Made by a program: the position numbers and the translations under genes. A model generated the notes under the pieces. That model saw only the letters and a program-made list of their open reading frames with translations. It did not search any database and was not told the DNA's origin. Source: an uncultured delta proteobacterium (GTDB lineage Bacteria > Desulfobacterota > WTBG01). Taken from it: a DNA stretch of 64,000 nt. Below, piece after piece: positions 8,818 to 48,554 of this stretch. Positions within the stretch are counted from its first letter, which is position 1; each line of letters begins with the position of its first letter. The stretch is from contig CAWCBP010000008.1 of the NCBI GenBank assembly GCA_963793865.1, forward strand, positions 320,001 through 384,000. Direction: 5' to 3'.

Positions 8818-10407
8818 ATGAAAAAAACACTCCTCCTGATTATTGCCTTCATTGGCCTCCTGGCCCTCTACAAGGCACAGCACGTGAAGCCGGTGGAAGA
8901 TCCCCGGGAATCTCCCATCTTCCAGCAGCGGCTGCAAAGCTCTCTGGATAAATTCCAGGAGAGCGATTATCCTTCCAGGTCCGAGCGAAAGCGGCGCGGC
9001 GATGCCGAAGCCGGGTCCCGGGCATCATCCGGCACGGAACAGCAGGTGAAAGACCTGGTCGCATCGGGCATGTGCGGTCAGGTTACCCTGACCTGGGTGG
9101 AGGAGAAAAAGATTCCCAAAGAGAAGGTTATCATCAAGCGCAGGGAACCGGATGAGGACTATGAACCGCTTGAGGGAACAGGCATCTTCGAGCGGGAGGA
9201 GGAAGGGGGAGTCAGGTACTGGTTTTCAGAAAGCGGACTGCGTGACGGCGTGAAATACGATTACCTGGTTTCGGTGAAGGATGAAGGGGTAAAAGCGCGG
9301 GTCAAAGGTCCTGTTTCCATTACGCTGGCCTGCACCGACCGGGACAGGGAGCTGCTGGCCAAGCGGGACAGGATGCTGAAGGAGTATGCCCAGAAGACGC
9401 CCCGGGAGCGGGATGGTGATCAGGCGGGAAAAGCATTGCCCCCGGCGAAGGCAGCAGGCGGGGATGTAATCGCTTCCGGGAGATGCGGCAGACTGACCCT
9501 GACCTGGGCCGAAACGGGGATGATTGACAAGAGCGGCGTTCAGATAAAAAGAAAATCCGGCAACGGGGATTACACGCTGCTCAAGGAAAGAAAAATCTAT
9601 CATAGAGAAGAGGAAGCAGGCGGGATACGTTACTGGGCCGCGGACGACGGCCTTAATGACGGGGAGAGCTATCAGTATCTTGTTTCATTTAAAGATGGGG
9701 CGGGCAAAGAGGTGGTAAAAGGTCCTGTCTCAATCAGCCTGACCTGCACGGAGAAGGACAGGGAAATGATAGCCGGGCAGGAAAAGATGGTTAAAGAGTA
9801 CTACCGGAAGCAGGCCGGCAGGGACAATTCCGCGCCCGGCGCTCCGGCTGCGGCAGCAGGGGCGTCGCCCTATGAGTTGAGCAAAGAGGTATATACAGTC
9901 GAGGCGGGCAAATCACCCTGGAAAGGAGCACCGGATGCGCCCGTGACCCTGGTGGTGTTTTCTGATTTTGAATGCGTCCACTGCGGTACCCTGGCGGAAT
10001 CTCTGGAAACCATGCTTAAGATATTTCCCGATGACGTAAAAGTCGTCTTTAAAAATTATATTATACCCTACCACAAGAACTCTGAATATGCCGCCATGGC
10101 AGCCCTGGCCGCGGGTGAGCAGGGGAAGTTCTGGGAGATGCACGATCTGCTCTTTAAAAACCAGTCGGCATTGGGGAAGGAGGCTATTACAGGCTTTGCC
10201 GCATCATTGAAACTGGATCTTGAAGCGTTTGAAAAATCCCTGGCAAGCAAGGAACTTAAGGATAAAATTGAACAGGATGGAGCCCAGGGTAAAAACCTGA
10301 ACATTCAAAACCTGCCCACCACCTTTATTAACGGCAGAAGCTTCATGGGCTCACCTCCCGCCGAACGCATAAAAGGCTTCATCGAAGGGATGCTTCAGAA
10401 GAGGTGA
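8818..10407 (+). CDS. Membrane-anchored DsbA/thioredoxin-fold oxidoreductase with two N-terminal FN3-like repeats
   Basis: GAPDAPVTLVVFSDFECVHC (CxxC), AGEQGKFWEMHDLLF and a cis-Pro-like NLPTTFING. The unit ASGxCGxxTLTW...GPVSIxLxCT is duplicated. Confidence 0.85.
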   Translation: MKKTLLLIIAFIGLLALYKAQHVKPVEDPRESPIFQQRLQSSLDKFQESDYPSRSERKRRGDAEAGSRASSGTEQQVKDLVASGMCGQVTLTWVEEKKIPKEKVIIKRREPDEDYEPLEGTGIFEREEEGGVRYWFSESGLRDGVKYDYLVSVKDEGVKARVKGPVSITLACTDRDRELLAKRDRMLKEYAQKTPRERDGDQAGKALPPAKAAGGDVIASGRCGRLTLTWAETGMIDKSGVQIKRKSGNGDYTLLKERKIYHREEEAGGIRYWAADDGLNDGESYQYLVSFKDGAGKEVVKGPVSISLTCTEKDREMIAGQEKMVKEYYRKQAGRDNSAPGAPAAAAGASPYELSKEVYTVEAGKSPWKGAPDAPVTLVVFSDFECVHCGTLAESLETMLKIFPDDVKVVFKNYIIPYHKNSEYAAMAALAAGEQGKFWEMHDLLFKNQSALGKEAITGFAASLKLDLEAFEKSLASKELKDKIEQDGAQGKNLNIQNLPTTFINGRSFMGSPPAERIKGFIEGMLQKR

Positions 10408-10617: not shown

Positions 10618-10645
10618 TTGACAAATTCATCTGTTAATGTATTAT
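10618..10645 (+). promoter_or_regulatory. Possible sigma70-type promoter
   Basis: TTGACA at 10618-10623 and TATTAT at 10640-10645 (16-nt spacer) in AT-rich intergenic DNA. Confidence 0.45.
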
Positions 10646-10771
10646 ATTGAATATAAATTGTATAAAAAAGGGATTGCAACTTACATCAAATAAAACAATA
10701 TTCAATAGACTATTCCCCTAGAGATTTTACTAACCAGTAAAAACAACACGGGGAAATAATATGGATAATGT

Positions 10772-10815
10772 GTCCTCCATATACCAATAATGGTGTGGGG
10801 GACTTTTTTGTTTTT
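10772..10815 (+). terminator. Terminator-like hairpin in the 5' leader of the TxCP-repeat gene
   Basis: GTCCTCCATATACCA-ataa-TGGTGTGGGGGAC followed by TTTTTTGTTTTT, ~30 nt before the ATG. Confidence 0.55.
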
Positions 10816-10842
10816 GGTGAAGAACATTTTGATCAAGGGGGG

Positions 10843-12678
10843 ATGAGCATGAGAAGAATATATGGAATTGTAGCCACAGTACTGTTCGTGAGTGGGGCGC
10901 TGTTGAGTCAGGCCTTTGGGCAGCCATTTGATTTTGGTGACGCGCCGGAAGGCGCGCCTGCCTATCCTTCTTCGGGTGGGATGGGAATGTTTCCTACCTG
11001 CACAATGATTGGACCTGCTGGATGGATCCAGCACACCAATTTCGGTGGCTGGTTCGGACCGGCAGTCGATTTCGAACCTGATGGAAATGCCGGCTTTTGT
11101 CCACCCTCCGGCTTTCCCCCTTATGATCAGGACGAATGCTTTGCCGATGGTGATGCCGGGCTTATCATACCACCCGCATACACCATTGTCGGCGGAGTTG
11201 AGGTTCTTTGCCCTACAGCAACAGCCGGTTCCCTGGGAACAATCTGTCAGGCGGCTATCTGGGGTGGGAATGTTGATATCATTGTGCACAACTGGATGCC
11301 TAATCATCCTCCATATGTTTCTGCGTATGTCAATGTGCTCATGGACTGGGATCAGAATGGTGTGTGGGGCGGTGCTTCGACCTGTCCCCTGGGAAGCGCT
11401 CCGGAGCACATACTGGTTAACTTTGTGGTGCCACCCCAATTCGATGGACCACTCTCGGCTCTCGGGCCGCCGGGCTTCCTCATCGGCCCCAACCCGGGTT
11501 TTGTCTGGACACGATTCACTATCAGTGAAAAAGCTGTGGGTCTGCCCTGGACCGGTGAAGGAATGTTTGAGGATGGAGAATCTGAGGATTACTTACTGCG
11601 CATTGACCCGGCAGCGCAACCTACCATGCTACCTGTCATAACCGAGTGTCCTGTGGTTGCAACCGAATGTCCGGTTGGAGAAACCACCTGCCCGGTGGAA
11701 CAAACCTCTTGTCCTGTTGAACAAACGCACTGTCCGGTGGAACAGACCTTATGCCCGGTGATCAATACCCAATGTCCTGCACAACCGGAACCGACCATAT
11801 GTCCGGAAGCGGCAACCCAGTGTCCTGTGGTAGAGACTGAATGCCCGACACAGGAGACTATATGTCCCCTGGTGCCGACCCATTGTCCTGAGGAGCTGAC
11901 GCTTTGTCCCAAGGATCCGCCGTTCTGTCCCCCCGAGGAATTCACGATTTGGCCGGCAATACCGACCCAGTGTCCTGTGATATTGACAGCGTGTCCCATC
12001 GGTCCGACCTTTTGTCCTGATCCTCCTACTGCGTGTCCAATTACGCCAACCTGGTGTCCTCCGGTGGAGACGCAATGTCCCGTGGAGCCGGTTTTCACGG
12101 TATGTCCGCTCAACGCCACCCAGTGTCCTGTTGAACCGACAAAATGTCCGCCCCAGTACACCAACTGTCCGGAAATTCCCACCGTGTGTCCTATTGGCGC
12201 CGGGGCTACGACATGTCCGGAGATTCCTACCCAATGTCCCGTGGTTCCGACGGTGTGCGCGGCCCAGGTGCCCACGGTCTGTCCGGTGGACCCGACCTAC
12301 TGTCCGCTCAGTGACGCTGACGCTGACGGCGTTCCGGATTGCAGCGACAACTGTCCCACTAAATATAACCCGGGACAGCAAGACAGCTATCCACCGGGCG
12401 GGAACGGGTGCGGTGATGCCTGTGAGTGCGAAGGCAACTTCGATGATGACTATGATCAAGACGGGAGTGATGCGTCAACCTTCAAGGTGGATTTCGGCAG
12501 AAGCAAAATCAGCGGCTACCCTTGTACCAGCGCCCTTCCCTGCAATGGTGACTTTGAGTGCGATACCGATGTGGATGGAAGCAACGCATCAATGTTCAAG
12601 GTGGATTTCGGCAGAAGTAAAATCAGCGGCAACCCCTGTCCCATTTGCCCAACGAACCCGTGGTGCGTGTATCCCTAA
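10843..12678 (+). CDS. Secreted GEVED-like domain + ~31 TxCP heptad repeats + TSP3-like + dockerin-like tail
   Basis: Signal peptide, DFGDAP...WDQNG...RF...GESEDY (GEVED-like), repeat tract, then DADGVPDCSDNCP and CECEGNFD...FKVDFGR twice. Confidence 0.8.
   Translation: MSMRRIYGIVATVLFVSGALLSQAFGQPFDFGDAPEGAPAYPSSGGMGMFPTCTMIGPAGWIQHTNFGGWFGPAVDFEPDGNAGFCPPSGFPPYDQDECFADGDAGLIIPPAYTIVGGVEVLCPTATAGSLGTICQAAIWGGNVDIIVHNWMPNHPPYVSAYVNVLMDWDQNGVWGGASTCPLGSAPEHILVNFVVPPQFDGPLSALGPPGFLIGPNPGFVWTRFTISEKAVGLPWTGEGMFEDGESEDYLLRIDPAAQPTMLPVITECPVVATECPVGETTCPVEQTSCPVEQTHCPVEQTLCPVINTQCPAQPEPTICPEAATQCPVVETECPTQETICPLVPTHCPEELTLCPKDPPFCPPEEFTIWPAIPTQCPVILTACPIGPTFCPDPPTACPITPTWCPPVETQCPVEPVFTVCPLNATQCPVEPTKCPPQYTNCPEIPTVCPIGAGATTCPEIPTQCPVVPTVCAAQVPTVCPVDPTYCPLSDADADGVPDCSDNCPTKYNPGQQDSYPPGGNGCGDACECEGNFDDDYDQDGSDASTFKVDFGRSKISGYPCTSALPCNGDFECDTDVDGSNASMFKVDFGRSKISGNPCPICPTNPWCVYP
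11638..12306 (+). repeat. Coding tandem repeat xxxTxCP (21-nt period, degenerate)
   Basis: 29 CP dipeptides, 28 of them TxCP, plus TIWP and TVCA variants. Confidence 0.9.
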
Positions 12679-12762: not shown

Positions 12763-12964
12763 ATGGCCATGACGGAGCATGGCCCTCCATTTTTATTGGA
12801 TGCTGCGATCAAGTCGCAGGATGACCCGCTTATGTATACATACAAAAAACAGGGGTAAGAAATGAGCTGATTTTTATAAATATTCTTAAATGTTTATTGA
12901 CGATTTACCGAATAGATTCTGCAGGCGCAGATCTTGAATTTCTCTCTCAGAAACATTGATAACA

Positions 12965-13016: not shown

Positions 13017-13131
13017 GACATTTTAAATATCATTGCCTTGTTCTGACAGCAAACAAATGGCGCCAGTCATCCTGCGACCTGATCGCAGGATCCAATCAAA
13101 TCTGTATGTGTCAAAGCACGGGAACCTGCGC

Positions 13132-15176
13132 ATGAACATTACCGGTTCGCTTTTAAAATTCTGTTTAACCTTCACAATTGCATTTCTCATATCCTGTGCC
13201 GGTGCCTCCGCATTCGCGGGGAGCATGTGTGTTGAACTGACGGAGTCAAACAGGCTGCCTGACGGTCAAGAGTACGCCGCCGTTACCTTAAGCTACATTT
13301 ATAATGGCGACAAGAGAGGGGTGAGAATGACCGTAAAGGAGAACGAGGACATTCTTTTACCCCGAAAATATTTTGGCATCCGGAGGTTCGGTTTCAACAC
13401 CACCCTGGCTAATCCGGCAAAAAACCTGAAGATTAAAGTTCCCCGCGAATGGACCCGAAGGTTTAAGCGCTTCAGTTATGGCACATTCGGCCAGTTTGAA
13501 GTGAACGTCAGCAGGCGGGTTCCTTCCCTGGGGAAGATCTATAAACGGGTAACCCCGCTTATCATGGATATTTACTACCGCAGTGGAGATTTATCCTATA
13601 ACGATTTCATAGTGGAAAATAAAAAAGGGTACAATTTCGCCGCACTGATTGCAAACTATACGTACGATGACAAATACAACCCGGGTGCCTGTTTTGCCAC
13701 AGAAGAAAAGCCCTATGCCTGTGAAAAACCGTCCACCACAACGACCATCATTAAGCCTTATACAACCACAACAACCGGACCGGGAAGCACCACAACAGCC
13801 AAGCCTTCTTCAACCACGACATCCAAACCGGTCAGTACATCCACCGTAAAGCCATCCTCGACCACCACATCAAAACCGTTGAGCACCACCACTGTTAAAC
13901 CAACGACGACGAGCACGGTTCCGGCCACCACAACATCCGTCCTGACGACGACCAGCTCGCTTCCGACGAGCACGGTTCCGGTTACAACCTCCTCGATGCC
14001 GTCGACCACCAGTTCCCAGCCGGTGATCACTACCATCAGTGCCGATCAACAACCACTTCACAGCCCTCAACCACCAGCACGCAGTTGACCACCACCACCT
14101 CGGTGCCCTCTATCTGCACGGGGGAGATTTACGAGGGCGGCACCTGTGACCTGGGGCTGCCCATTGACGACCCGGCCTATAACCGCCCGGGCAGGAGGGG
14201 GCTCGCGCTTACCTGCGAGGACATTGTGGACTTCTGCGTCTGCACCGACTGCGTGAATCTTGATCCGGCATGCTTGGCCTGGGCGATAGATCCCGCGGAG
14301 CCGTATTTGAGCATCGTCGCCAACCCCAACGGGAGCGCGCGGCTGACGGTGGGAGAATCCTGCGACCAGCTTGAGGAGATCAGGGAGTACACGGTGACGG
14401 TGACCGATACTTGTAATGGCTGGTCGGACAGCGTGGTGCTTGAGCTGGGCAAGGTGACCATCGACGTTCAGGATGTCAGCGTGAAGAAGGGGAGTGGATC
14501 CTTTAAGGTGCCGGTGAGTCTTGTCAATCGTTACAACGCGGTTCGGGCGATGAGCGTTGATATCTGCGAATGTGACGGGGGTAGTGACGGAATAGTGTGC
14601 GACAGCTGCAGCATCGATCCCGCGCGCGCGCTTGAGTTCAACTGCTCGGCGCATGAAACAGCCGACGGCTGCTGCAGGGTGGTGCTGTATTCCACCAATC
14701 CCGCCGCCTTTATTTTGCGAGGGGCAGGGACAGTGTTAAACGTAGTCTATGAAGCCGAGGAGGCTTTTGAGGGCTGCAGCTGTCTGAGGCCGGTAAACAG
14801 GCAGGTCTCGGACCAGTTTAATGAGGAACTCTGTGCCTGCCAGTCACCGGGGGATGTTTGTTTCAAATCCTGCGGAGACATCTACCCCCAGGACTGTCTC
14901 GGTCCCGACTGCACACCCTGCGGAGATAACGTGGTTAATCTTTTGGATATACTGGAGGCAGTTGATATCGTTCTGGGCTATCAAACTCCGACTGCCTGCC
15001 AGCTTGATCACGGCGATGTGCCTAACGGCAAGCCGCCTTATTGCGGAAACCCCGCGGGTACCCTCAACTGTGCTTCGGACGGGGACATTGACGTGCTCGA
15101 TCTCCTGGTCATTATTGACATGGCGCAGGGCAGGGCCAACTGCTGCGATTTTTGTCTGTTTAAGAAGATTTTTTAG
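13132..15176 (+). CDS. Secreted protein: unknown basic N-domain + Thr/Ser/Pro-rich linker + Ig-like + cohesin-like (class B) + classical-type dockerin; one frameshift at ~14043
   Basis: Signal peptide MNITG...SAFA. The T-rich tract continues across the frame change into ORF 14085-15176. VPVSLVN...DICEC...FNCSAHE..DGCCRVVLYS, then GDNVVNLLDIL and DGDIDVLDLL. Confidence 0.7.
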
Positions 15177-20315: not shown

Positions 20316-22227
20316 ATGCGTTCAGGAGATGACCATACCAAGGCACAAGGCTCCCGGAAAGTGGTTGGCCGGGGGCAGGATTGCCTGCAAAAAAGCGGTT
20401 CCGCGGGGGGAAGGAAAACGGCGGGCGGCAGGTGGTTATGGCTTTTCCTGGTGATCCTTGCCGTTGTGATGCTCAGTTATTCCAACAGTTTAGAGAATCA
20501 GTACATCTTTGATGATTTTCATCTGATACTTTCGAACCCTCAGGTGACCAGCATCGAGAACACCGCACGCGACCTGCTCTCGGGGAAGCTCCCGGCATAC
20601 TATAGGCCGCTTAGAACCATTTCCTATGCTCTGGATTACACTCTCAATAAAAAGTTCTGGTACCGGTTTGCAAGCCATCAATGGACTGACAGGGGGCTTA
20701 TTCCCCTGGGATACCACGTCTCCAATATTTTCTATCATATCCTAACTGCATTGCTCGTATACCTGGTAATTTATAAGTTATCCTTGAATGCCAGGGTCGC
20801 TTTTATAGGCGCAAGCCTCTTTGCCCTCCATCCGGTACACACTGAAAGCGTAGCCTACCTTTCGGGGAGAAGGGATATCCTTTCTACTCTTTTTTACCTC
20901 GCTGGTTTTTATTGCTTCCTCTGTTACAGGCAGGGAAAGCAAATACGCTTCATAGTCGCCGCCTTTCTTATGTATATGCTGAGCTTGGGGAGTAAGGAGA
21001 TGGGGGTTACCCTTCCCGGTCTCTTTCTCGCATATGACCTGGTAAAAAATTTTAATCACAATGAGAGCAGCATGGGCCCCGGCTATTGGAAGGCTCTCTT
21101 TTCAAGCGCGAAGAAAAGTTTTCAGCAGTCTTATTTACTGTATCCGGTTGCTTTCCTGGGGGCTTTAGCCTGCAGCTGCTATGCAGTGTTCATTAAATCA
21201 GCTTCCCGTCAGGATGCGTATTACGGAGATAGCGCGTTTACCACTTTTCTCACAGTTGGAAGAATACTGGTGCATTATATAAAACTCCTTGTCTACCCCA
21301 TCAGGCTCAATGCCGATTACAGCTACAATGCTTTCCCTCTTTCGGTCTCCTTATATGAACCATCAACCTTCCTGTCTGTCCTACTGTTACTGCTGATGGG
21401 GTATCTGACCCTCAAGCTGCTGGTTAATCATAAAATGGCTGCTTTCGGGATTGCCTGGTTTTTTATAACCTTGCTGCCGGTATGTCACATCATTCCCCAC
21501 CATGAGATGATGGCTGAGCACTATCTTTATTTGCCTTCGGTTGGTCTCTGCCTGGTCGCGGCACTGGCCGGTAAGCGCTCCCTGGCGACGGGGAGGTCAC
21601 AACCTTGTTGCTCACAGGCTGTTTTCTCGCCGTAGTTGTGCTCTTTTCATTCCGGATATGGGATAGAAACAGGGATTGGAGCGACAGCCTTACCCTTTAT
21701 GAAAAGACGGTTAAAACAGCGCCTCAGTGCGCCCGCGCGCACAATAATCTCGGCAATGCACTAACTCGTGCGGGAAGAATTGAGGAAGCTGTTTCTGCCT
21801 TTAAACAGGCGCTCGCTATTAAGCCGGATTTTGCAGATGCCCGCAATAATCTCGGGATTGTCTATGCCAGAAGCGGTGATGTGGACGCAGCCATCACCGA
21901 ATATAAGAGAGTGCTGGCCCTTACCCCTAAACATACCAAGGCGATAGCATATAACAATCTTGCCTGGATTTATGCTACATCCATAAACGAGGCACAACGT
22001 GACGGCCGGAGGCAGTTGCATTAGCAATCAAAGCATGTGAGCTAACAGGATTTAAAAATGCCAGCTTTCTGGATACACTGGCCGCTGCGTGTGCTGAGGC
22101 GGGTTATTTCAAGAGTGCCGTGTTCTATCAGAAAAAGGCTCTGGCCATGAGTCAGGAAAAAGAACAAGCAGCTCTCCATGTCCGTCTGCGCCAGTATGAG
22201 TCCGGCCAGGCTTACCGATCCTACTAG
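20316..22227 (+). CDS. TMTC-like GT-C membrane glycosyltransferase with C-terminal TPRs; frameshifts at ~21590 and ~22010
   Basis: YIFDD, YYRP, FALHPVHTESVAYLSGR, SKE and AEHYLYLP, then TPRs. The final frame reads AVALAIKACELT...LDTLAAA to TAG at 22225-22227. Confidence 0.78.
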
Positions 22228-22268: not shown

Positions 22269-24569
22269 ATGGCTGGAACCTATTCATTGAGGCGAGCATG
22301 GGAAAAGCGAGCGTCAGAAAAAAAAGCAGGAAGACGTCCAGGGGAGCCAGCAGTTGATAACGGGTCAGCCTCTGAAGCCGGCTGCCTGCAAGCTCCGGCA
22401 CAAGAGGCCGAGTGCAAAAGGAAGTGGTACCTGCTCCTGGCTGGCGTGCTGCTTTTAACCGCTGCCTGCTATGGTAATTCCCTGAACAATACCTTTGTGT
22501 TTGATGATGCCCTGGTGATTGCTGAAAATCCCGGGATACGCGGCATTGAAAATATTCCCCGGCTGCTGGGATTCACAACCGGCCGCACTTCCTACCGGCC
22601 CATCAGGATGGTCTCCTACGCACTGGATTATACGCTTAACAAGAACCTCTGGTGCCAGATCGGGAATTGCCGGGAATCGGATCCCGGGCTCTATCCCCCG
22701 GGATACCATATTGGCAATATTGCCTACCATCTGCTGACGGCATTGCTGGTTTTTCTGGTCGTTTCGCGCCTGGCCGGAAATTTCCGGGTTGCGCTGCTGG
22801 CAGCGGGCATATTTGCCCTCCACCCGGTGCACACCGACAGCGTGACCTATCTCGCGGGCAGGAGGGACATCCTGTTCACCCTGTTTTATCTGGCCGGGTT
22901 TTATTTTTTTCTTCGCTACCGGCAGGAAAAGCGGCTGTCCCTGATGATTTTCGCCTTTATCATGTATATGCTCAGCATGGGGAGCAAGGAAATGGGGGTT
23001 ACTCTCCCCGCGCTCTTTTTGTGCTATGACATGGTTGAAAATTTTTCCCCGCAGGGTATCGGCCCGGGAGGCCGTGCCCGGGAGCTTTTCAAGAGTTTTA
23101 AAAAGAGTGTGGCCCAATCCGCGTATCTCTATGTTCCCCTGTTCATCGGCGCTCTTGCTTTCATCTACTATAAAGTTTTCGTTGCGTCACCATCCTACCA
23201 GAAGGCCTATTACGGGGACAGCGTTTTCATCACCTTTCTCACCGTGGTTAAGATTCTGGCGCACTACATTCAATTGCTGATATATCCCGTCAATCTCATC
23301 GCGGATTATTCCTACAACGCCTTTCCGCTTGCAACTTCATTGTTTGAGCCCGCGGTCCTCTTCTCCCTTGTGCTTCTCGCGGGGGTGGTGTACGCGCTCC
23401 TCCGCTTGTTGGACGGCCACAAGCTGCCGGCATTCGGCGGCGCCTGGTTTTTCCTGACCCTGCTCCCGGTCTGCCATATTTTTCCCCACCACGAGCTGCT
23501 GGCTGAACACTATCTCTATCTGCCCTCGGTGGGTTTCTGCATTGCGGCGGCAGCGCTGTTCGACACCTTCATGAAGGAGAAAAAGTACCGCTTATATGCT
23601 TCAGCCGGTTGTGTCGCCGTCCTCATTATCTTTTCGCTGCGCGTGGTTGACAGAAACAGGGATTGGAAGGACAGCCTTACCCTTTATGAAAAAACCGTCA
23701 CAACCGTACCTGAATGCGCCCGCGCAAACTCCAATCTCTGCGAGGCCTATACCAATGAGGGAAGGCTGGATGAGGCCCTGGCGGCATGCAGGCAGGCGCT
23801 GGCCATCAAGCCGGACCAGATCGAGGCGAACCATAATCTCGGCACCGTGTATGCGCGCAAAGGAATGGCGGAAGAAGCGATTGCCAGCTACAAACAGGCC
23901 CTGGCTTTAAGGCCGCGCTACGCGAAGGCATATTTCAATATCGGTGTGCTGCTTTATCAAAAGGGTGATCTCGAGGGTGCAGTTGATGCGTATAAGCAGG
24001 CGCTTGCCATCAGTCCTTACTATGCTGAAGCGAGAAAAAATCTGGGCATGGCCTACAGCGCAATGGGAAGATTTCAGGAGGCAATTGAGCAGTACAGGTG
24101 GGCAATGGCCATCAAACCGAACTATACCGGCGCCCGGAACAGCCTGGCAGCCGCCTACCTGCAGCAGGGTGCGTTCGATAATGCCATAGCGGAAATGGAA
24201 TTGGCGGTGGCCGGCAACCCCGATGACGCGGACGCGTATTTCAGCCTGGGATATGCCTATTCACAAAAGGGGGATACTGCCAAAGCGGTTGACGCGTATA
24301 AGCGTGCGATTGCCAAGGGCCTGGTGAGGGCGGAAGTCCACAGCAATCTCGGCAATCTCTACCTTCAGGAGGGGAGGCTTGATGAGGCAATCAGTGAATA
24401 CCTGCAGGCGATTTCCATCCAGGATAATTTTGCCGGCGCCCATAATAACCTGGCCATGGCATATTTTAAAAAGCAAGAGTATGCCATGGCCATAAAACAC
24501 TGTGACAGGGCGGCGGAACTCGGTCTCAGCAATCCGGCCCTGCTGAAGGATCTCCTGCCCTATCGCTAG
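22269..24569 (+). CDS. TMTC-like GT-C membrane glycosyltransferase with multiple TPRs
   Basis: FVFDD, SYRP, FALHPVHTDSVTYLAGR and AEHYLYLPS, then a TPR array. Close paralog of the upstream gene. The start is uncertain. Confidence 0.85.
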   Translation: MAGTYSLRRAWEKRASEKKAGRRPGEPAVDNGSASEAGCLQAPAQEAECKRKWYLLLAGVLLLTAACYGNSLNNTFVFDDALVIAENPGIRGIENIPRLLGFTTGRTSYRPIRMVSYALDYTLNKNLWCQIGNCRESDPGLYPPGYHIGNIAYHLLTALLVFLVVSRLAGNFRVALLAAGIFALHPVHTDSVTYLAGRRDILFTLFYLAGFYFFLRYRQEKRLSLMIFAFIMYMLSMGSKEMGVTLPALFLCYDMVENFSPQGIGPGGRARELFKSFKKSVAQSAYLYVPLFIGALAFIYYKVFVASPSYQKAYYGDSVFITFLTVVKILAHYIQLLIYPVNLIADYSYNAFPLATSLFEPAVLFSLVLLAGVVYALLRLLDGHKLPAFGGAWFFLTLLPVCHIFPHHELLAEHYLYLPSVGFCIAAAALFDTFMKEKKYRLYASAGCVAVLIIFSLRVVDRNRDWKDSLTLYEKTVTTVPECARANSNLCEAYTNEGRLDEALAACRQALAIKPDQIEANHNLGTVYARKGMAEEAIASYKQALALRPRYAKAYFNIGVLLYQKGDLEGAVDAYKQALAISPYYAEARKNLGMAYSAMGRFQEAIEQYRWAMAIKPNYTGARNSLAAAYLQQGAFDNAIAEMELAVAGNPDDADAYFSLGYAYSQKGDTAKAVDAYKRAIAKGLVRAEVHSNLGNLYLQEGRLDEAISEYLQAISIQDNFAGAHNNLAMAYFKKQEYAMAIKHCDRAAELGLSNPALLKDLLPYR

Positions 24570-27491: not shown

Positions 27492-29816
27492 TTAATAAGT
27501 GCACCACGGATCTGTTGCACAACTTGGGCAGCTGATACTGTATGAACTCCTGCCGAAATCCGCTTTAAAAAGTGCCGCGTCAGATCCATCAACATTCCCG
27601 TTGCAGCTAAAATCACCGTTGCAAAGAGCAACGGCGGTACAGGGGTTCTTGTATGAACTCCTGCCGAAATCCGCCTTAAAAACTGCCGCATCTGATCCAT
27701 CCTGGTCCAGGTCACCATCGAAGTTGCCCTCGCACTCGCAGGCATTACCGCAACCATTGCCGGCAGGAGGATAACTGTCGTCCTGATTGGGATCAAAAGT
27801 AGCGGGGCAAACATCACCGGCACAGACATTATCCCCGTCGGCCGTATCCGTACAGCTGTCACATGCATCGCCGGTCAAATCCTCGTCCGCATCTTCCTGG
27901 TTCATGCTGCAGAATCCGCCTGTCCCGCACTCGCTGGTGTTGTTTCCCGGAATGTTGCAGGGATCCCCGATATTGCTGCCGGCGGTGCAGGTGCCGCCGC
28001 TGGGCCCATTCTGGATGGCCGGGCAATTGTCACGATAATCGATGACCCCGTCATTGTCGGTGTCATCTTCAGCAAAGGCGCTTCCGAAGGAATATATTTT
28101 CCCGTTGGTGGAAGAATAGTAGACATGCCCGTCCGCCAGGGCGGGAGAAGGAACCGAATACCAGGCCACCACGTAGGGATCATGGCCCCTCACGATGAAT
28201 TCATTAGCCTGGATACTGCAGTTGTCATCCTTGCAGAACTGGTACTCCCACACGGGGGTCAGCGTGTTCGGGTCAGTAACGTAATCGTAGCAGAAGAGTT
28301 TCTCTCTCCCGTAGGTGTTTGAATTGATCCAGGCACGGTCATAGTCGGTGGCGGCCACATAGAGCAGGCCGTCCTGTGGAGAAATGGATATGCCGCTCGG
28401 CCCGGGCAGCCAATAGCCGGAAACAGGATGAGGATCGCCGACATTCCAGGTCGGCACACCCAGAAATGCTTCTTTAATGATCCGGCCCGTATCCTTGTTG
28501 AGCACAAACATGCGCCCGGTATCGGCTATGCCGATCACATACCCCCGGGATTCATCAACCGCAGGCGCTGAACAGAGGGCGGTATGACCCCTTACATTGA
28601 AGCCCGCATGGTATCCCCACTGCACCTGGCCGGTATCCACGTTCAGTGCCCAGAGGGCGCCGTCACCGCCGGGAGCATAAATAGTGTTGCCCGAAATGGC
28701 CTGGGTTCCTCCCTGAGCCAGTGGAATAGTTCCATGATGCCAGAGCTCGGCCCCGGTGTCTGCGTCAACCGTGCCAAACTGCCCGTAGTGATAATCGGTG
28801 GCGGTGTCCGCCTCGATGAAAACCTTGCCGTTCTGTACCGGCGGTATGTTGGTTACCCCGCATCCCCGCGGATTCCAGGTCCATAGGACCGAACCATTAT
28901 CTTCGTCTAATCCGTAAAAGTATCCGTCACGACCGGCCCAGTAGTTGGTGGCATCATTGCCGATGGTGGGCCAGGGATATCCCGGCTGCCCTTCAGTCAC
29001 ATAGGCCCAGGGCCGGAATATGGCATAAAAGCTGGGAAGGAATGACCCGATGTAGAGCTTGCCGTTGGAAATGGAGGGCGGGGAAAGATGCCAGGCCCAC
29101 TTCTGGTTATACCAGGGTTTCCCTACGTTCGGTCCCCCCGGGTCTTTGTAGGGTGTCCTCTCCCAGATGGTCGAGCCGTCATTCATGTTAAGCGAGATGA
29201 CCCGCCCGTCAAAGGTCCCGAAAATGACGCAGCCGTTGGTGCCGTAATTGGGGTCCATGGTGGGCCCGGTGATGAACTGGTCGTAACCGGCAGGAAAAGG
29301 AAGCGGGGCGATGAGAGAAAAATCAGTGCAGTCCGGCTGGGTGGTGGTGCACTCAAAACACCAGGAAGGACAAGTGCCGGTGGTATAGCACACCCCGGTG
29401 TTTCCCTCCAGCATGGGAATGTCATTGTAACACCAGTCGGTGGGGGCTCCGGCCGGTTCGGTGGGCGCCTGCCAGAGAAAGTGTTGGTGCCAGAGCAGGC
29501 CGCCGGTAAACTGATCGTTGGCTTGGATTACCCCGGAACCCGCCGTGATTATCATTCCCCGGTCCACCACCGAGGGACCCCTGGAATCGGCGCGAGTTGT
29601 GGGAGCCCAGGCGCGAAATTCGCGGTCTTGCATCCACAGCTTGGCTGCGGTGGCTGGATAGCCGCTGTCCGTTGCCGCGCCGCTGTTCAATAAATCATGC
29701 CTGAAGCTCGGCCAGGGATCTGCCGTCGGTCCCACAGCCAGACCCGTTCCCTGGATGCTGCACATTACAAAAATGATGAGAGGGAGAAAATACGCGAACA
29801 CTGTTTTCTTGCTCAT
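27492..29816 (-). CDS. Secreted PQQ-type (BamB-like) beta-propeller protein + TSP3-like + dockerin-like tail
   Basis: WPSFRHD..NSG, repeated A.D..TG..LW and SPALADGHVY motifs, and a CECEGNFD...FKADFGR tail twice. Confidence 0.85.
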   Translation of the reverse strand: MSKKTVFAYFLPLIIFVMCSIQGTGLAVGPTADPWPSFRHDLLNSGAATDSGYPATAAKLWMQDREFRAWAPTTRADSRGPSVVDRGMIITAGSGVIQANDQFTGGLLWHQHFLWQAPTEPAGAPTDWCYNDIPMLEGNTGVCYTTGTCPSWCFECTTTQPDCTDFSLIAPLPFPAGYDQFITGPTMDPNYGTNGCVIFGTFDGRVISLNMNDGSTIWERTPYKDPGGPNVGKPWYNQKWAWHLSPPSISNGKLYIGSFLPSFYAIFRPWAYVTEGQPGYPWPTIGNDATNYWAGRDGYFYGLDEDNGSVLWTWNPRGCGVTNIPPVQNGKVFIEADTATDYHYGQFGTVDADTGAELWHHGTIPLAQGGTQAISGNTIYAPGGDGALWALNVDTGQVQWGYHAGFNVRGHTALCSAPAVDESRGYVIGIADTGRMFVLNKDTGRIIKEAFLGVPTWNVGDPHPVSGYWLPGPSGISISPQDGLLYVAATDYDRAWINSNTYGREKLFCYDYVTDPNTLTPVWEYQFCKDDNCSIQANEFIVRGHDPYVVAWYSVPSPALADGHVYYSSTNGKIYSFGSAFAEDDTDNDGVIDYRDNCPAIQNGPSGGTCTAGSNIGDPCNIPGNNTSECGTGGFCSMNQEDADEDLTGDACDSCTDTADGDNVCAGDVCPATFDPNQDDSYPPAGNGCGNACECEGNFDGDLDQDGSDAAVFKADFGRSSYKNPCTAVALCNGDFSCNGNVDGSDAALFKADFGRSSYSISCPSCATDPWCTY

Positions 29817-32248
29817 GCTATACCTCCTTTAACTATTGTTCTGTTGCAATAATCAATGCGTAAAAATATGCAATTATTCAGCGCATGTGATCAATGAAAT
29901 CCGTCGGCAAAGTAGTCCAGCAGTTCAATCACCTCCGGATTTTTAGGATCAAGCGCAACTGCTTTATTAAGGCTCAGCAGGGCATTGCGCGTAGAACCTA
30001 TTTTTATGAATGCCCTTGCCAGCAGAATATGCGTATCAAGGTCGTCCGGATTGACAGTCAGATGAGCCGTCAGATAGCGCATGGCTACTTCGGTTTTTCC
30101 CTGATCCGAATAATGGGCTACCTTTTCCATGATACCCTGTTTGATGGTTGGCAACGCTGCCGTCTCGTCTTGATTGAGGGAAATGGATTTTTTAAATTCT
30201 CCAATTGCCTCCTTCAGGGATTCCTTTTTAAGGTAGGCAAGGCCCAGCTTGAGGTGCGCATCAGCATCATCAGATTTGTTCTTAAGGTATACATTGAAAT
30301 TCTCTATAGCCGCATCATAATTGCCCTTATCCAGAGCTTCTACCCCAAGCTGGTAGTTTTGAGATACAGTGCCCGCACATCCTGCAAGGAAAATGCAGAG
30401 CACAATAGTTACACAATGTATGGTTTTTCTCATTCGAATTTTGATCATTCGTATTCGCTGTGTGCCTCGGGTTTATGGTCGGTAGGAGCGGCTTTGAGCC
30501 GCGAATGCCTCACGCATGAACGCGCTCCTGCCGGGATTGCTATACAAGGCCACGATTTTATTTATACTCATATCAACTTTTAGCTAACCTCCCTTATTAC
30601 GGATAAGGGTCGCCGAAGCAGTATATTTTCCCATTGGTGGAGGAGTAGTAGACATGTCCGTCCGCCAGGGCGGGAGAAGGAACAGAATACCAGGCCACCA
30701 CGTAGGGATCATGGCCCCTCACTATGAACTCGTTGGCCTGGGTGCTGCAGTTGTCATCCTTGCAGAACTGGTACTCCCATACCGGGACCAGGGTGTCCGG
30801 ATCCGAGACATAATCGTAGCAGAAGAGTTTCTCTCTCCCGTAGGTGTTTGAATCTATCCAGGCACGGTCATAGTCGGTGGCGGCCACATAGAGCAGGCCG
30901 TCCTGGGGAGAAATGGATATGCCGCTCGGCCCGGGCAGCCAGTAACCAGAAACCGGGTGCGGATCGAACACATTCCAGGTGGGCACTCCCAGAAATGCCT
31001 CTTTAATGATCCGGCCCGTATCCTTGTTGAGCACAAACATGCTCCCGGTGTCGGCTATGCCGATCACATACCCCCGGGATTCATCAACCGCAGGCGCTGA
31101 ACAGAGGGCGGTATGACCCTTTACATTGAAGCCGGCCCAATGGGTCCACTTCACCTGGCCGTCATCGATGTCCAGTGCCCAGAGGGCGCCGTCACCGCCG
31201 GGAGCAAAGAGGGTGTCACCTGAGATTGCCTGGGTTCCTCCCTGGGCAAGCGGAATAGTTCCATGATGCCAGAGCTCAGCCCCGGTGTCTGCATCTACCG
31301 TGGCAAACTGCCCGTAGTGGTAATCGGTGGCGGTGTCCGCCTCGATGAAAACCTTGCCGTTCTGTACCGGCGGTATGTTGGTTACCCCGCATCCCCGCGG
31401 GTTCCAGGTCCACAGGACATCACCATTATCTTCATCCAATCCGTAAAAGTACCCGTCACGACCGGCCCAGTAATGGGTAGCGTCATTGCCGATGGTGGGC
31501 CAGGGATATCCCGGCTGCCCTTCAGTCACATAGGCCCAGGGCCGGAATATGGCATAAAAGCTGGGAAGGAATGACCCGATGTAGAGCTTGCCGTTGGAAA
31601 TGGAGGGCGGAGAAAGATGCCAGGCCCACTTCTGGTTATACCAGGGTTTCCCTACGTTCGGTCCCCCCGGGTCTTTGTAGGGTGTCCTCTCCCAGATGGT
31701 CGAGCCGTCATTCATGTTAAGCGAGATGACCCGCCCGTCAAAGGTCCCGAAAATGACGCAGCCGTTGGTGCCGTAATTGGGGTCCATGGTGGGCCCGGTG
31801 ATGAACTGGTCGTAACCGGCAGGAAAAGGAAGCGGGGCGATGAGAGAAAAATCAGTGCAGTCCGGCTGGGTGGTGGTGCACTCAAAACACCAGGAAGGAC
31901 AAGTGCCGGTGGTATAGCACACCCCGGTGTTTCCCTCCAGCATGGGAATGTCATTGTAACACCAGTCGGTGGGGGCTCCGGCCGGTTCGGTGGGCGCCTG
32001 CCAGAGAAAGTGTTGGTGCCAGAGCAGGCCGCCGGTAAACTGATCGTTGGCTTGGATTACCCCGGAACCCGCCGTGATTATCATTCCCCGGTCCACCACC
32101 GAGGGACCCCTGGAATCGGCGCGAGTTGTGGGAGCCCAGGCGCGAAATTCGCGGTCTTGCATCCACAGCTTGGCTGCGGTGGCTGGATAGCCGCTGTCCG
32201 TTGCCGCGCCGCTGTTCAATAAATCATGCCTGAAGCTCGGCCAGGGAT
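28093..32248. repeat. Direct duplication of ~1.63 kb (28093-29719 and 30622-32248, offset 2529)
   Basis: Identical incidental ORFs at 29088-29693 and 31617-32222. The remainder differs mainly by scattered substitutions. Confidence 0.9.
29891..30448 (-). CDS. TPR-repeat lipoprotein
   Basis: Lipobox LAGC followed by TPR motifs. Confidence 0.8.
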   Translation of the reverse strand: MIKIRMRKTIHCVTIVLCIFLAGCAGTVSQNYQLGVEALDKGNYDAAIENFNVYLKNKSDDADAHLKLGLAYLKKESLKEAIGEFKKSISLNQDETAALPTIKQGIMEKVAHYSDQGKTEVAMRYLTAHLTVNPDDLDTHILLARAFIKIGSTRNALLSLNKAVALDPKNPEVIELLDYFADGFH

Positions 32249-32351
32249 GGATGGTGGATCCGGTACCCAGCGCCCTGTCAAGCGGCATGCATATGACCAC
32301 TGCGGTCAGCATGAATGCACTGAGAAACCATAAACCTGACTTTCTACTCAT
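30597..32351 (-). CDS. Secreted PQQ-type beta-propeller protein without a dockerin tail
   Basis: Near-identical to the propeller of 27492-29816. It has a different signal peptide and ends right after the last blade. Confidence 0.85.
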   Translation of the reverse strand: MSRKSGLWFLSAFMLTAVVICMPLDRALGTGSTIHPWPSFRHDLLNSGAATDSGYPATAAKLWMQDREFRAWAPTTRADSRGPSVVDRGMIITAGSGVIQANDQFTGGLLWHQHFLWQAPTEPAGAPTDWCYNDIPMLEGNTGVCYTTGTCPSWCFECTTTQPDCTDFSLIAPLPFPAGYDQFITGPTMDPNYGTNGCVIFGTFDGRVISLNMNDGSTIWERTPYKDPGGPNVGKPWYNQKWAWHLSPPSISNGKLYIGSFLPSFYAIFRPWAYVTEGQPGYPWPTIGNDATHYWAGRDGYFYGLDEDNGDVLWTWNPRGCGVTNIPPVQNGKVFIEADTATDYHYGQFATVDADTGAELWHHGTIPLAQGGTQAISGDTLFAPGGDGALWALDIDDGQVKWTHWAGFNVKGHTALCSAPAVDESRGYVIGIADTGSMFVLNKDTGRIIKEAFLGVPTWNVFDPHPVSGYWLPGPSGISISPQDGLLYVAATDYDRAWIDSNTYGREKLFCYDYVSDPDTLVPVWEYQFCKDDNCSTQANEFIVRGHDPYVVAWYSVPSPALADGHVYYSSTNGKIYCFGDPYP

Positions 32352-32665: not shown

Positions 32666-35021
32666 CTAATACCAGCACCACCGGGGCGTATCACATTTGG
32701 TACAGGGGTTGCTGTATGCGCTTCTGCCGAAGTCTGATTTAAACAGCGACGCATCAGAACCGTCGACGTTCCCGTTGCAGGTAAAATCACCGTTGCAAAG
32801 GTTACTATTGGTACAGGGGTTGCTGTACGTGCTTCTGCCGAAATCCGCCTTGAAGGCTGCTGCATCACCGCCATCCACGTCCACGTCGCCATCGAAGTTA
32901 CCCTCACATTCACAGGCGTTGCCGCAGTTGTTACCGCCCGGGGGGTAGGTATCTTGCTGGAGGGGATTGGAGAGAATGGAGCAGTTGTCACAGGCGTTCC
33001 CCACGCCGTCACTGTCACCATCTTCCTGGCTGGTGCTGCAGACACCGCCCGTCCCGCAGTGGGCGTTGCTGGTGCAGATCACATTGACATAACCGCTCAT
33101 GCAGGTGCCCATGCTTGCGGCGTTGGGTGCCGAAGGACAGTTGTCCGCGCTGTCTGATACACCATCCTCGTCCATGTCGTCAGTCAGGCCGTTGAGCTGT
33201 TTGAAGACCTTCGCCCCGCCAAGTCCCGAAGGGGTGGAGCTTGCGCCCTTACTGCCGGCAACATACAGGTGACTGCCGAAAACGGCAAAACCCTCAAAAT
33301 TGATTATTTCCGGGTCTCCAAACCCGTTGCCGGTTACCTGGGTCCATGTCGTTACGTCAGAGGTTTTCCATATCTGCGATCCGAGCATCTCATCAATGTT
33401 GGCGGAGCATTGTATTCAGGAACATATTGACAGATAATCCCGCCATACAGGGTGCCGTTAACGGGAAAAGGTTTACCGCAAGGTTCTGGTACGCGACACC
33501 AAAGAAGGGGTAATCCTGAGGATATTTATATCCGTCAAATCCATTAGGATAGGGGGAATCTCCCAGGGGATCAACATAGGAAGGGTCAACGGGGTCCACA
33601 TTGGCTTCACCAACGGCGTACTGCCAACTTCCATCATCTTTAATTTCGGAAAGGCCACTTTGCGCAGAGAGCACCCGCGCCCCATCGCCTACAACCCCTA
33701 CCATAAGATTATTGTCAAAATCAGCAAGACTCCAGGGCATGAAATTGTATTGATTGGTTCCGCACCCCGGCGGGCTTCCGAACCCGTTTTCATTACTGCC
33801 GGTGGTGTTGCCGTCAACCGCGTTATCGACGATGAGCTCCCATCCGAACTCGGTAAGCCGGGCCATGCGCGCGCATCCGCCCAAATCACCGCCGGTGCCG
33901 GTTCCCCCCGCATACAGCACCGGCGTTCCGGAAACTGAAGATACTGTCAGGTCGGATACGCTGCTTGAAACGGGCTTATAGCCCCCGGGATAGGCAGCGC
34001 TGTTGGAGTGGAAATTGCCGAAGCTGTGGTAGTTATAGGGTGCAGGGATACTCAGGACGGAGGGGGTTACAAACCAGTCATCGCCGTTCTCGGTGTACCA
34101 GATCTGCCCTCCGGTTTCATAGTTCAGCCCCGTGCTCACGTAGAGCTTGTTATCAAAAATACGCATCGCGGTAATGGTCTTGTTCCAGAAGTCACCAAAA
34201 CCGTTTTCATCGTCCCCCATGCCGATTTCATAGGAATTGCCGACTGCGACCGCTCCGAGTGTATAAGAATAGGAAGGAAAGGGATTGTTATAAACGGCGC
34301 TGCTGCAGTTTGTGTATTCGGTTTCCACACCGCCGCTGTAAGTGCCGGCCGTTTCGTTCTGCTGAACCGTAAGGGTATTAGCTGTATTGCTTACAATTAC
34401 AAACCTTCTATAGATGCCGGAGCCTGAGGTTATCTGCAGCACCCCGCCGGCCCATTCATTGGGCGACCACGCTTGTGCGCTGTCAGTAATATCGGCTGTT
34501 CGAACCCCATCTCCTGCGGCGCAGCCGGCAATACCGGTTATGGTTCCGGATTCTTCCGCGTCTCTCTTATCTGAAATTACCGCCTCCCAGTTTGTCCCAT
34601 CATAGCGCCAGATCTCCGCGCCGGTTGAACCAAGGTAATTTCCCTGCAGGCCGGAAGAGAGTCCGAAATAGAGCTTGTCCTGAAAAACAATCATCCTGGC
34701 CCATACGTTGTTGATGTGAGTATTGCCATATACCCCGTTGGTTTCACCACCGGGGAACAGCACCTGTTCCCAGCCTGTTCCGCCCGTCCGCCAGACTTCA
34801 GTGCCCTCCAGCTGATTCCTGGTCATGGCATACAAATTTCCCCCGTATTCGGCCATCGCCACCACCGACATGTTATCATCGCTGCCGAAACCCGGCGGAT
34901 TTACCTGCACCCACAGTGAACCGTCTTCACCGGTAATTGCCTGGGACCATTCAGGTGAGATCAGAAGCAGTGGCAAGATGATGATTAAGGTGATGATTGA
35001 TTTTGATAAAATACTTCTCAT
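32666..35021 (-). CDS. Secreted probable beta-propeller protein + TSP3-like + dockerin-like tail; two frameshifts at ~33458 and ~33397
   Basis: Repeated GFG...N and EVWR/EIWR/QIWY/QIWK blades. The bridging frame reads NGTLYGGIICQYVPEYNAPP between ORFs 33393-35102 and 32666-33388. Confidence 0.72.
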
Positions 35022-38261: not shown

Positions 38262-38292
38262 TTTTACCCCCCTTACATTAAATGAGATGACT

Positions 38293-38337
38293 AAAAAAAG
38301 GACTTTCATGCGGGTATACACCCGGCAGAGAAAGTCC
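38293..38337 (-). terminator. Terminator-like hairpin in the 5' leader of the cytochrome fusion gene
   Basis: Minus strand GGACTTTC...GAAAGTCC followed by T7, ~30 nt before the ATG at 38261. Confidence 0.6.
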
Positions 38338-45371: not shown

Positions 45372-45398
45372 AGGCCGGGTGCCGGAGGCATAGCGTAT

Positions 45399-47426: not shown

Positions 47427-47520
47427 CAGGCGGTTGAAAAACACCCATCTGCTTTGTGGCTCAAAGGGAGGGGCTTTTGACGCCACAACATTTCTACAAC
47501 CTTTTAGGGCGAGATGTTCA

Positions 47521-48551: not shown

Positions 48552-48554
48552 GCA

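Follow-up and report, generated by a model that had tools for sequence, protein, structure and literature searches.

The window analysed here is a 64,000-nucleotide (64-kb) stretch of DNA from an uncultured delta proteobacterium (contig CAWCBP010000008.1), and this report concerns one of its plus-strand genes, which encodes a protein with a long stalk built of xxxTxCP heptapeptides. The open reading frame (ORF) list gives a plus-strand ORF at 10768-12678 encoding 636 amino acids (aa). Because the N-termini of homologs align to the sequence MSMRR at the ATG at 10843, translation was taken to start there, giving a coding sequence of 611 aa plus stop (10843..12678, plus strand), and the longer ORF from 10768 is probably unused. 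The product reads as a secreted modular surface protein comprising a signal peptide, a GEVED-like head, the stalk, a thrombospondin type-3 (TSP3)-like repeat and a doubled calcium-loop tail with a putative anchoring role. A Sec-type signal peptide of 26 aa, ending in AFG, is predicted at 10843..10920 (plus strand) from a hydrophobic core followed by a small-residue cleavage motif, and residues 3-25 form a helix in the AlphaFold2 model. A promoter-like site, TTGACA-16-TATTAT with 11/12 matches, lies at 10618..10645 (plus strand), and a terminator-like hairpin plus T run lies 87 nt past the stop codon (12765..12794, hairpin 12765-12784, plus strand); each of the two is a consensus match only.

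The stalk (11620..12306, plus strand) was parsed by splitting the sequence after each Cys-Pro, and consists of a Cys-less entry unit, PTMLP, followed by 31 xxxTxCP units with 30 cysteines. Twenty-eight of the units are T.CP and the other three carry the variants PFCP (unit 14), TIWP (unit 15) and TVCA (unit 29). The usual unit length is 7 aa (26/31); units 8, 22 and 27 have 9 aa, and units 15 and 30 have 8 aa. Pro follows 29 of the 30 cysteines in the 223-aa stalk, which is 22% Pro and 15% Thr. A preliminary description, made from the sequence alone, had given the same 28 TxCP units, the same three variants and the same longer units, all of which were reproduced by this parse. It had placed the array at 11638..12306, which falls inside the stalk: position 11638 begins the Ile of the first ITECP, and the entry unit starts at 11620.

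The 28 T.CP motifs of the 223-aa stalk compare with a mean of 1.0 (standard deviation 1.0, maximum 6) in 20,000 composition-preserving shuffles, and chance is therefore excluded; shuffles of the whole protein gave a mean of 0.6. Frame +0 of the window contains 29 T.CP motifs, 28 of them inside the stalk ORF, and the remaining five frames contain 1-3 each. Two long minus-strand ORFs with GH.V-type repeats overlap the stalk (11589-12275, 228 aa, and 11749-12459, 236 aa), as might be expected if the repeat were a low-complexity expansion without function or were being read on the wrong strand or in the wrong frame. Such an explanation is extremely improbable: the plus frame carries the signal peptide and a conserved head and tail, its homologs are 51-91% identical over their full length, synonymous codons are used at the conserved residues, and the two minus-strand ORFs mirror the sense repeat. 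Automated gene calling could report them by mistake.

At the DNA level the 21-nt units share a mean pairwise identity of 54% (maximum 76%). The invariant Thr is encoded by ACC, ACG, ACT and ACA in 17, 8, 3 and 2 cases respectively, and Pro by CCG, CCT, CCC and CCA in 13, 10, 6 and 1. Tandem Repeats Finder, with periods of 21 and 42, detected only the first ~6 units (11640..11777, plus strand), the one stretch of the stalk still repetitive in DNA. Because the units have diverged in DNA, Thr and Pro are written with synonymous codons and so few units are seen by Tandem Repeats Finder, the repeat is considered to be maintained at protein level, as the preliminary description had proposed. The first ~6 units appear to be a recent duplication; unit number varies within this stretch among homologs.

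A word-based search with the full-length protein, in which 8000 candidates were scored, returned 321 proteins at E<=1e-3. Among the 120 of these that were listed, ~15 are full-length homologs at 51-91% identity, and the others share the head alone, joined to type IX secretion system (T9SS) tails, FlgD_ig, DUF7901, peptidase S8 and further domains. In homolog P0038 a DUF7901 head sits on the same stalk and tail. In an alignment of 17 sequences the T, C and P columns are invariant in most units and length differences come from heptads gained or lost as a whole; the odd units KDPPFCP, PEEFTIWP and VEPVFTVCP are kept in the closer relatives.

The 223-aa stalk alone was then used as a query against 1.84 billion representatives, clustered at the 50% identity level. 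This search gave 228 clusters at E<=1e-3, 86 at E<=1e-10 and 19 at E<=1e-30, and 149 matches were listed. At least 8 T.CP motifs were present in 114 of the 149 listed clusters; the remaining listed matches are in part short fragments or unrelated low-complexity proteins containing CP (P0151, P0217, P0231). Across the 149 listed matches the spacing from CP to CP was 7 in 1789 cases, 14 in 140, 12 in 53, 9 in 42 and 8 in 40. Organism labels among 46 stalk matches named only two Planctomycetes/Planctomycetota metagenome-assembled genomes and 'subsurface metagenome', and the labelled matches were called 'hypothetical' or named for another domain. No match to the stalk was found in Pfam or NCBIfam at E<=1 or among Protein Data Bank (PDB) sequences at E<=10, and a search of the ESM Atlas gave no usable match. 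A literature search for the motif, for Cys-Pro heptapeptide repeats and for unit strings found no description, subscription journals being mostly outside the search. The family had not been recognised in the preliminary description, which would have given way to a characterised repeat family or to homologs lacking the period and the cysteines; neither was encountered, and the homologs keep both the 7-aa period and the Cys.

Partner domains were sought with Pfam in 64 proteins that carry an array and have 330 aa or more, a set sized to a residue limit. DUF7901 was found in 14, GEVED in 12, Laminin_G_3 in 6, peptidases S8/C10/C25 in 6, Dockerin_1 in 4, a T9SS tail in 2 and cohesin in 1; no domain was found in 21. 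PA14, F5/8-type-C, FG-GAP and SBBP domains occurred in other array proteins of this set, and no listed best stretch in any of the 64 lay inside an array. The position of the array varies from just past the signal peptide (P0128) to between domains (P0121, with two arrays) or the extreme C-terminus (P0141, P0148). On this sequence evidence, the stalk is one member of a large and still unnamed family, the xxxTxCP heptad arrays, which appear to serve as interchangeable spacers between many heads and anchors. P0141 (36 units) and P0148 (32 units) end in strictly 7-periodic arrays with a 4-unit block period and similar C-termini (CPPEP and CPPQP); their heads are unrelated, one being a peptidase C25 and the other having no Pfam match. 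These two proteins suggest that the array itself can act as a C-terminal anchor.

Residue preferences were profiled over 2096 units defined solely by CP at 7-residue spacing. Position 1 is occupied by Ala, Pro or Val, position 2 by Val (29-30%) plus Ile and Ala, position 3 by Ala, Glu, Pro, Ser or Thr, and position 5 by Gln, Lys, Arg or Glu; position 6 is Cys and position 7 Pro. At position 4 Thr is present in 96.8% of units and Ser in 1.0%. The profile shows no enrichment of His or Tyr. Irregular units flanked by regular ones (n=112) kept Cys in 106 cases and Thr in 100, with Ser in a further 10, and had Pro replaced in 99; the order of constraint indicated by these sequences is C > T > P. 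The alternation of V2, T4 and C6 with polar positions 3 and 5 carries the predicted signature of a short two-faced extended strand closed by Pro. A 9-residue unit, xxPxxT[VI]CP, recurs in otherwise unrelated arrays (P0121, P0132, and units 8 and 22 of the window stalk), examples being ATPQATVCP, QTPQPTVCP, AQPEPTICP and VEPVFTVCP. This variant may be a defined kink or register shift.

The near-invariant Thr raises the question of a mucin-like O-glycosylated linker, in which each Thr would be the acceptor for PMT/TMTC-type glycosyltransferases encoded nearby, the glycans would stiffen and protect the chain, and the Cys would be secondary. Three PMT_2/TMTC-like genes for putative protein O-mannosyltransferases are present in the window (20316-21635 and 22269-24569, plus strand; 41008-43041, minus strand), the gene at 13033-14088 has a classical T/S/P-rich linker, and the Pro and Thr contents of the stalk are in keeping with such a role. 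These glycosyltransferase genes, however, lie 8-30 kb away, the stricter conservation of Cys than of Thr would be left unexplained, and Ser replaces Thr in just 1.0% of the 2096 units. Near-absence of Ser in place of Thr is unusual at glycan acceptor sites. With a Thr:Ser ratio of 97:1, a structural or highly specific function would be a better fit than that of a general acceptor of glycans; the ratio points to steric or hydrogen-bonding requirements, or else to a modifying enzyme of high specificity. A mucin-like linker is accordingly rated as rather unlikely, and it could coexist with the cross-linked rod favoured below. Secreted glycoside hydrolases and cellulosomal proteins contain PT (mucin-like) linkers, which are Pro/Thr-rich, vary in length and lie between catalytic or binding modules and dockerin-type anchors. 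The stalk is like them in being a Pro/Thr-rich spacer of variable length, and one such linker is that of the gene at 13033-14088. They differ from the stalk in that they are without Cys, tolerate Ser and have no strict period, whereas Cys is the most conserved residue of the stalk and its Thr outnumbers Ser 97:1. The Bacteroidetes O-glycosylation motif D-(S/T)-(A/I/L/V/M/T) was considered and rejected, position 5 of the unit being mostly polar. The PMT_2/TMTC-like proteins encoded at 22269-24569 and 41008-43041 carry long TPR domains, and all three are possible modifiers of nearby Thr-rich surface proteins.

A higher-order period had been noted in the preliminary description, with longer units at every seventh position. 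In the window stalk the intervals between long units are 7, 7, 5 and 3, and this spacing is shared with close relatives only; the long units lie elsewhere in distant family members (e.g. P0021, P0016). Among 78 arrays of at least 8 consecutive T.CP units, which range from 8 to 42 units in size, 54 are strictly 7-periodic, and the intervals between long units (n=23) are 2, 3, 4, 6, 8, 9, 12 or 17, none of the 23 being equal to 7. Autocorrelation of the variable positions in the 26 arrays of at least 14 units gave best lags of 1 (3 arrays), 2 (2), 3 (3), 4 (5), 5 (5), 7 (1), 8 (3), 9 (3) and 10 (1). The spread of lags points to block duplications of arbitrary size rather than to a structural super-repeat. 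The period therefore holds for the window protein and its close relatives, and was rejected as a feature of the family, since no interval equals 7 and the lags differ from array to array; the wider family has no super-period.

The preliminary description had further proposed a disulfide-laddered solenoid. In a compact beta-solenoid the heptads would be the sides of coils, an intrachain Cys ladder would run across the core and the Thr would form an aligned ladder, as in insect antifreeze proteins. The V2-T4-C6 and polar 3,5 alternation would fit short beta-strands with one buried face, and the gene for a DsbA-like protein next door (described below) would suit a disulfide-rich fold. The extreme conservation of Thr and Cys recalls the Tenebrio-type antifreeze beta-solenoid (TCTxSxxCxxAx), which is likewise secreted and disulfide-rich, has short repeats with invariant Thr and Cys, and pairs its Cys within each coil (PMC8038014). 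The coil of this antifreeze protein differs in having 12 residues, two internally paired Cys and an outward TxT face, whereas the stalk unit has 7 residues and one Cys, with its Thr on the same face as its Cys, and its arrays show odd Cys counts, have no predicted strands and form internal spacers in large proteins. In a regular strand T and C, as residues i and i+2, share a face, so that an exposed Thr with a buried Cys would be impossible.

Cysteine counts bear on the same question. The count is odd in 52 and even in 31 of 83 arrays internal to proteins, with array boundaries set heuristically and some of the proteins being fragments. Among the close homologs the stalk Cys number is even in 11/17 and odd in 6/17. 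The cysteines on either side of the Cys-less TIWP unit number 14/16 or 12/16, even on both sides, in 5/9, and 17/16, 22/19, 10/20 and 11/16 in the others. These even counts in the close family favour intrachain pairing. On the other side stand the odd counts, the fact that homologs differ by odd as well as even unit numbers, and the variation in block size, where coils of one size would favour blocks with a constant unit number. Counted over the mature window protein, the Cys total is 47. A closed intrachain ladder should have an even number of Cys and the same number of units in every coil; the data agree with neither expectation, and such a ladder is disfavoured for this reason.

Structure prediction had been put forward in the preliminary description as a check on the solenoid. 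AlphaFold2 gave a mean predicted local distance difference test (pLDDT) score of 37.4 for the full-length protein (17-row alignment), with the stalk at ~26-36 and without DSSP elements, and a mean of 49.4 for the stalk alone (25-row alignment), again without secondary structure. The stalk values of ~26-60 overall are of low confidence and constitute weak evidence, and both models can be read only as 'no compact fold predicted'. AlphaFold2 usually builds solenoids readily from repeats of this kind. The PDB sequence search of the stalk also offered no solenoid template. With odd Cys numbers in 52/83 arrays and 6/17 homologs, 47 Cys in the mature protein, a varied block period and an unstructured, low-confidence prediction, the disulfide-laddered solenoid was not borne out, and a solenoid of any such compact kind is now regarded as improbable.

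Neither parity nor unit number would matter if the cysteines were reduced outside the cell, as in an anoxic habitat, with each Cys-Pro binding a soft metal, a metal-sulfide or sulfur surface, or heme. This would accord with Cys being the most conserved residue, with Pro following 29 of the 30 stalk Cys, with Val, Ile or Ala at unit position 2, and with arrays that end the protein without another anchor (P0141, P0148). The CP dipeptide is the commonest transient heme-binding motif, in which Pro aids thiolate coordination and aliphatic residues stand N-terminal of Cys (PMC10377097). Cys-Pro heme-regulatory motifs stand in a flexible context, which the stalk resembles (PMC10377097), and judged from its sequence the stalk would qualify as carrying such motifs; heme binding itself is hypothetical. 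These motifs are single or few and belong to intracellular regulators, whereas the stalk presents 29 CP in an array in a secreted protein. A brush of free thiols is also disfavoured by the lack of His or Tyr enrichment in the units, by the adjoining DsbA-like oxidase, and by the head and TSP3-type repeat of the same protein, which need disulfides. Moreover, a lone Cys per 7 residues in a Pro-rich chain chelates poorly compared with CxC or CxxC clusters. Ligand-binding thiols along the stalk are considered unlikely on this balance.

Two further Cys chemistries were rejected on general grounds. Lanthionine-type Thr-Cys cross-links were set aside for a Sec-exported protein of 600 aa, and no lanthipeptide-synthetase, cyclase or radical-SAM family was found among 22 window proteins scanned. 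The formylglycine motif CxPxR was dismissed as a different pattern.

A single invariant Cys per unit, indifference to parity and unit number, the CP dipeptide and secretion fit interchain disulfides, ligand-binding thiolates, or both under redox control, and interchain or intermolecular disulfides are ranked here above free ligand-binding thiolates. The reading that we tentatively prefer, and regard as a real possibility though short of probable, is an extended spacer of autonomous heptads whose Cys would most likely be disulfide-linked to a second chain. Each heptad would be an autonomous unit with a V2-T4-C6 face, a polar 3/5 face and a Pro corner at its end. Being autonomous, the units would make the array behave as an extended, semi-rigid rod, not a compact solenoid, with its length set by unit number. 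The near-invariant Cys would cross-link to a second chain by disulfides, the partner being either an in-register homo-oligomer in the style of the immunoglobulin G3 (IgG3) hinge or neighbouring Cys-rich envelope proteins, and the adjoining DsbA-like oxidoreductase would help disulfide formation.

An oxidative setting for this spacer is supported by the gene neighbourhood. The gene 360 bp upstream on the same strand (8818..10407, plus strand; Pfam, NCBIfam) encodes a secreted thiol:disulfide oxidoreductase of DsbA-like type, which has a CVHC motif and, at its N-terminus, two repeated domains. Its residues 364-523 match Pfam Thioredoxin_4 (1.3e-24) and DSBA (7.1e-17), and the NCBIfam Rcas_1661 thioredoxin-like lipoprotein family matches at 9e-28, below its cut-off. 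Neighbouring genes encode many Cys-rich secreted proteins, and the TSP3-type repeat of this chain has solved relatives in which the module contains disulfides. Planctomycetales are documented to have Cys-rich wall proteins (PMC8567305). The YTV wall proteins described there are, like the stalk protein, Cys-rich secreted envelope proteins, and their phylum is the only one named among the stalk matches (PMC8567305); the YTV domain was not found in the window protein by the Pfam scan, and repeat and architecture differ. The two repeated segments of the DsbA-like protein, of ~130 aa each (VASGMCGQVTLTW... and IASGRCGRLTLTW...), lie ahead of the thioredoxin fold, an arrangement unusual for DsbA.

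The closest likeness for a rod of this kind is the human IgG3 hinge (ELKTPLGDTTHTCPRCP(EPKSCDTPPPCPRCP)x3), which is described as 62 aa long, extended and semi-rigid, with CP-containing repeats and 11 interchain disulfides (PMC8371214). Hinge and stalk share tandem Pro-rich units with Thr and Cys-Pro and a position as extended interdomain spacers, and in the hinge the bonds are interchain and the Cys number need not be even, a further likeness to the stalk (PMC8371214). The hinge differs in its 15-residue unit, its CPxCP pairs and its 11 Cys in 62 aa, compared with 30 single Cys in 223 aa and a strict 7-residue period in the stalk. The hinge is also eukaryotic and dimerised by Fc, whereas a dimerisation domain and interchain bonds in the stalk protein would be hypothetical; the comparison is one of analogy only, with no homology implied.

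Several points weigh against the cross-linked rod. Low pLDDT is also the output of AlphaFold2 for novel folds with shallow alignments, here of 17 and 25 rows. The parity count depends on heuristic boundaries, many database proteins are metagenome fragments, and Cys of flanking domains could pair with stalk Cys. The even stalk Cys number in 11/17 of the close family, and on both sides of TIWP in 5/9, is what intrachain pairing predicts, and the insensitivity to parity across these sequences is compatible with in-register interchain disulfides without being specific to them. A hinge-like model leaves the strictness of the Thr (97%) unaccounted for. The 11 genome loci that were fetched match the head only: tblastn with the stalk, tail and DsbA-like protein gave no match in them, and a motif scan found no T.CP arrays. 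The extended conformation, the disulfide state of the Cys, oligomerisation and the interchain partner are all inferred.

The head (10921..11619, plus strand) ends in a GESED motif and was assigned as GEVED-like from a Pfam match below cut-off, homologs and Atlas clusters. Pfam GEVED matched the window protein at E 0.23 with 12.7 bits, below the gathering cut-off of 24.4. PF20009 is carried by dozens of proteins 45-65% identical to the head, and the nearest ESM Atlas clusters of the head are GEVED clusters with a score of 0.88, which serves as a lead only. A PDB sequence search with the head gave only a chance-level match. The head has 6 Cys in 15/17 relatives, with 7 in P0008 and 1 in P0038. 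From GESED to the entry unit PTMLP is 11 residues, and the first TECP follows another 8 residues on. In the paper that defines it, GEVED sits at the tips of adhesin-like proteins and stalk domains start 12-17 residues past the motif (PMC10952558); on its sequence the window protein follows this order and spacing of motif and stalk. It is thus like the fibrillar adhesins of CshA type, in which a tip domain with a GEVED motif is followed ~11-17 residues on by a stalk and then by a C-terminal anchor, with heads and stalks shuffled (PMC10952558). The known fibrillar-adhesin stalks are tandem folded domains of ~80-100 aa, whereas the window stalk is a 7-residue peptide repeat with one Cys per unit and no predicted fold. 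By its apparent function the stalk would be grouped with the stalks and linkers of modular surface proteins, and by sequence it falls in none of the families tested.

Beyond the stalk lies a thrombospondin type-3-like calcium-binding repeat (12307..12429, plus strand), assigned from a Pfam match below cut-off and a paralog profile. Pfam TSP_3 (PF02412) scored 20.8 bits with the whole protein and 23.2 bits with the tail alone, against a cut-off of 25. The tails of window paralogs match TSP_3 at E<=1 in 4/5 (best 1.7e-8), and a profile of the 5 window tails matches the cartilage oligomeric matrix protein (COMP) structure 3fby at E 3.5e-4 and thrombospondin-2 (TSP-2) at 0.056. The calcium-binding motif DxDxDGxxDxxDNCPxxxNxxQxD, with its Cys, is present in the tail as DADADGVPDCSDNCPTKYNPGQQD. 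The distal tail (12430..12675, plus strand) has two Asp-rich loop plus helix repeats, DxDxDGxDAxxFKxDFGRS, and ends in PWCVYP, as delimited by alignment of the 5 window tails and a motif scan; helices at 541-551 and 579-590 appear in the low-confidence AlphaFold2 model.

In the preliminary description the stalk separated a GEVED-like head from a dockerin-like tail. The stalk does lie between a GEVED-like head and a tail of calcium-binding type, while the dockerin label found little support. Dockerin_1 (PF00404) had no match at E<=1 in the window protein and matched weakly in 2/5 paralog tails (best 7e-4), hhalign of the tail against the dockerin-bearing P0156 gave a probability of 0.1 and no match, and no cohesin was found among the 22 window proteins scanned. 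Homologs P0039 and P0045 have a true PF00404 dockerin at the same alignment position as the distal tail. 'Dockerin-like' is thus an analogy of position and architecture, not demonstrated membership.

The tail module occurs in five window genes: at 2579-2839 and 12307-12675 on the plus strand, and at 27495-28064, 32669-33178 and 37401-37700 on the minus strand. The remaining four share 53-63% identity with the tail at 12307-12675 and belong to proteins with differing heads, among them a beta-helix and a PQQ-type propeller; most copies of the module end in PWC.Y. The shared tail has the look of an anchoring address that several surface proteins hold in common. At 37401-37700 the module lies inside a 1050-aa ORF (35169-38321) rather than at its C-terminus. 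The minus-strand ORFs at 27492-29816 and 30597-32351 encode adjacent paralogous PQQ_2/BamB-type beta-propellers, of which the first alone has a TSP3 repeat and the shared tail.

Downstream of the stalk gene, the plus-strand ORFs 13033-14088 and 14085-15176 overlap by 4 nt, and from ~14040 onward the Thr/Ser/Pro-rich mucin-like tract that begins in the first ORF is read in the frame of the second. A frameshift, whether genuine or introduced during assembly, has probably divided a single gene at 13033-15176, and its order is head, mucin-like linker and a Cys-rich (8.5%) C-terminal part. Another ORF, 822-1283, encodes 11.8% Cys. G+C is ~47-57% in the surface-protein island (1-43000) and 56-61% in the housekeeping part (44000-64000), where aroE, aroA and a bioF-like gene are located. 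The best named relative of the AroA encoded there, at 73% identity, is labelled 'MAG: Deltaproteobacteria bacterium'. A scan of the 64 kb with ARAGORN detected neither tRNA nor tmRNA genes.

How far bacterial adhesins and enzymes extend from the cell depends on repetitive stalks and linkers, and the kinds known are tandem folded domains or Cys-free Pro/Thr linkers. The stalk described here represents a third kind, whose unit is strictly 7 residues long and bears a single invariant Cys and a single invariant Thr; it occurs, with many different heads, in at least 114 clusters among the 149 listed. If the family were named, many surface proteins of uncultured bacteria that are now called 'hypothetical' would be better annotated. 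A more far-reaching version of the cross-linked rod, speculative and on present evidence somewhat unlikely, is a 'disulfide zipper', in which xxxTxCP arrays would be an extreme bacterial counterpart of the antibody hinge, with up to ~40 covalent rungs, joining copies of a secreted protein in register or stapling enzymes and adhesins onto a Cys-rich proteinaceous envelope. If this were true, the tether would be lengthened or shortened as units are gained or lost, and a change in the surrounding redox state could undo the attachment, amounting to an unrecognised form of redox-switchable anchoring and spacing in uncultured, largely planctomycete-like bacteria. Were the Cys to make disulfides with other chains or with the wall, or to act as ligands for metals or heme, the arrays would represent a new principle of anchoring or sensing and would offer protein engineering a simple scaffold that can be tuned.

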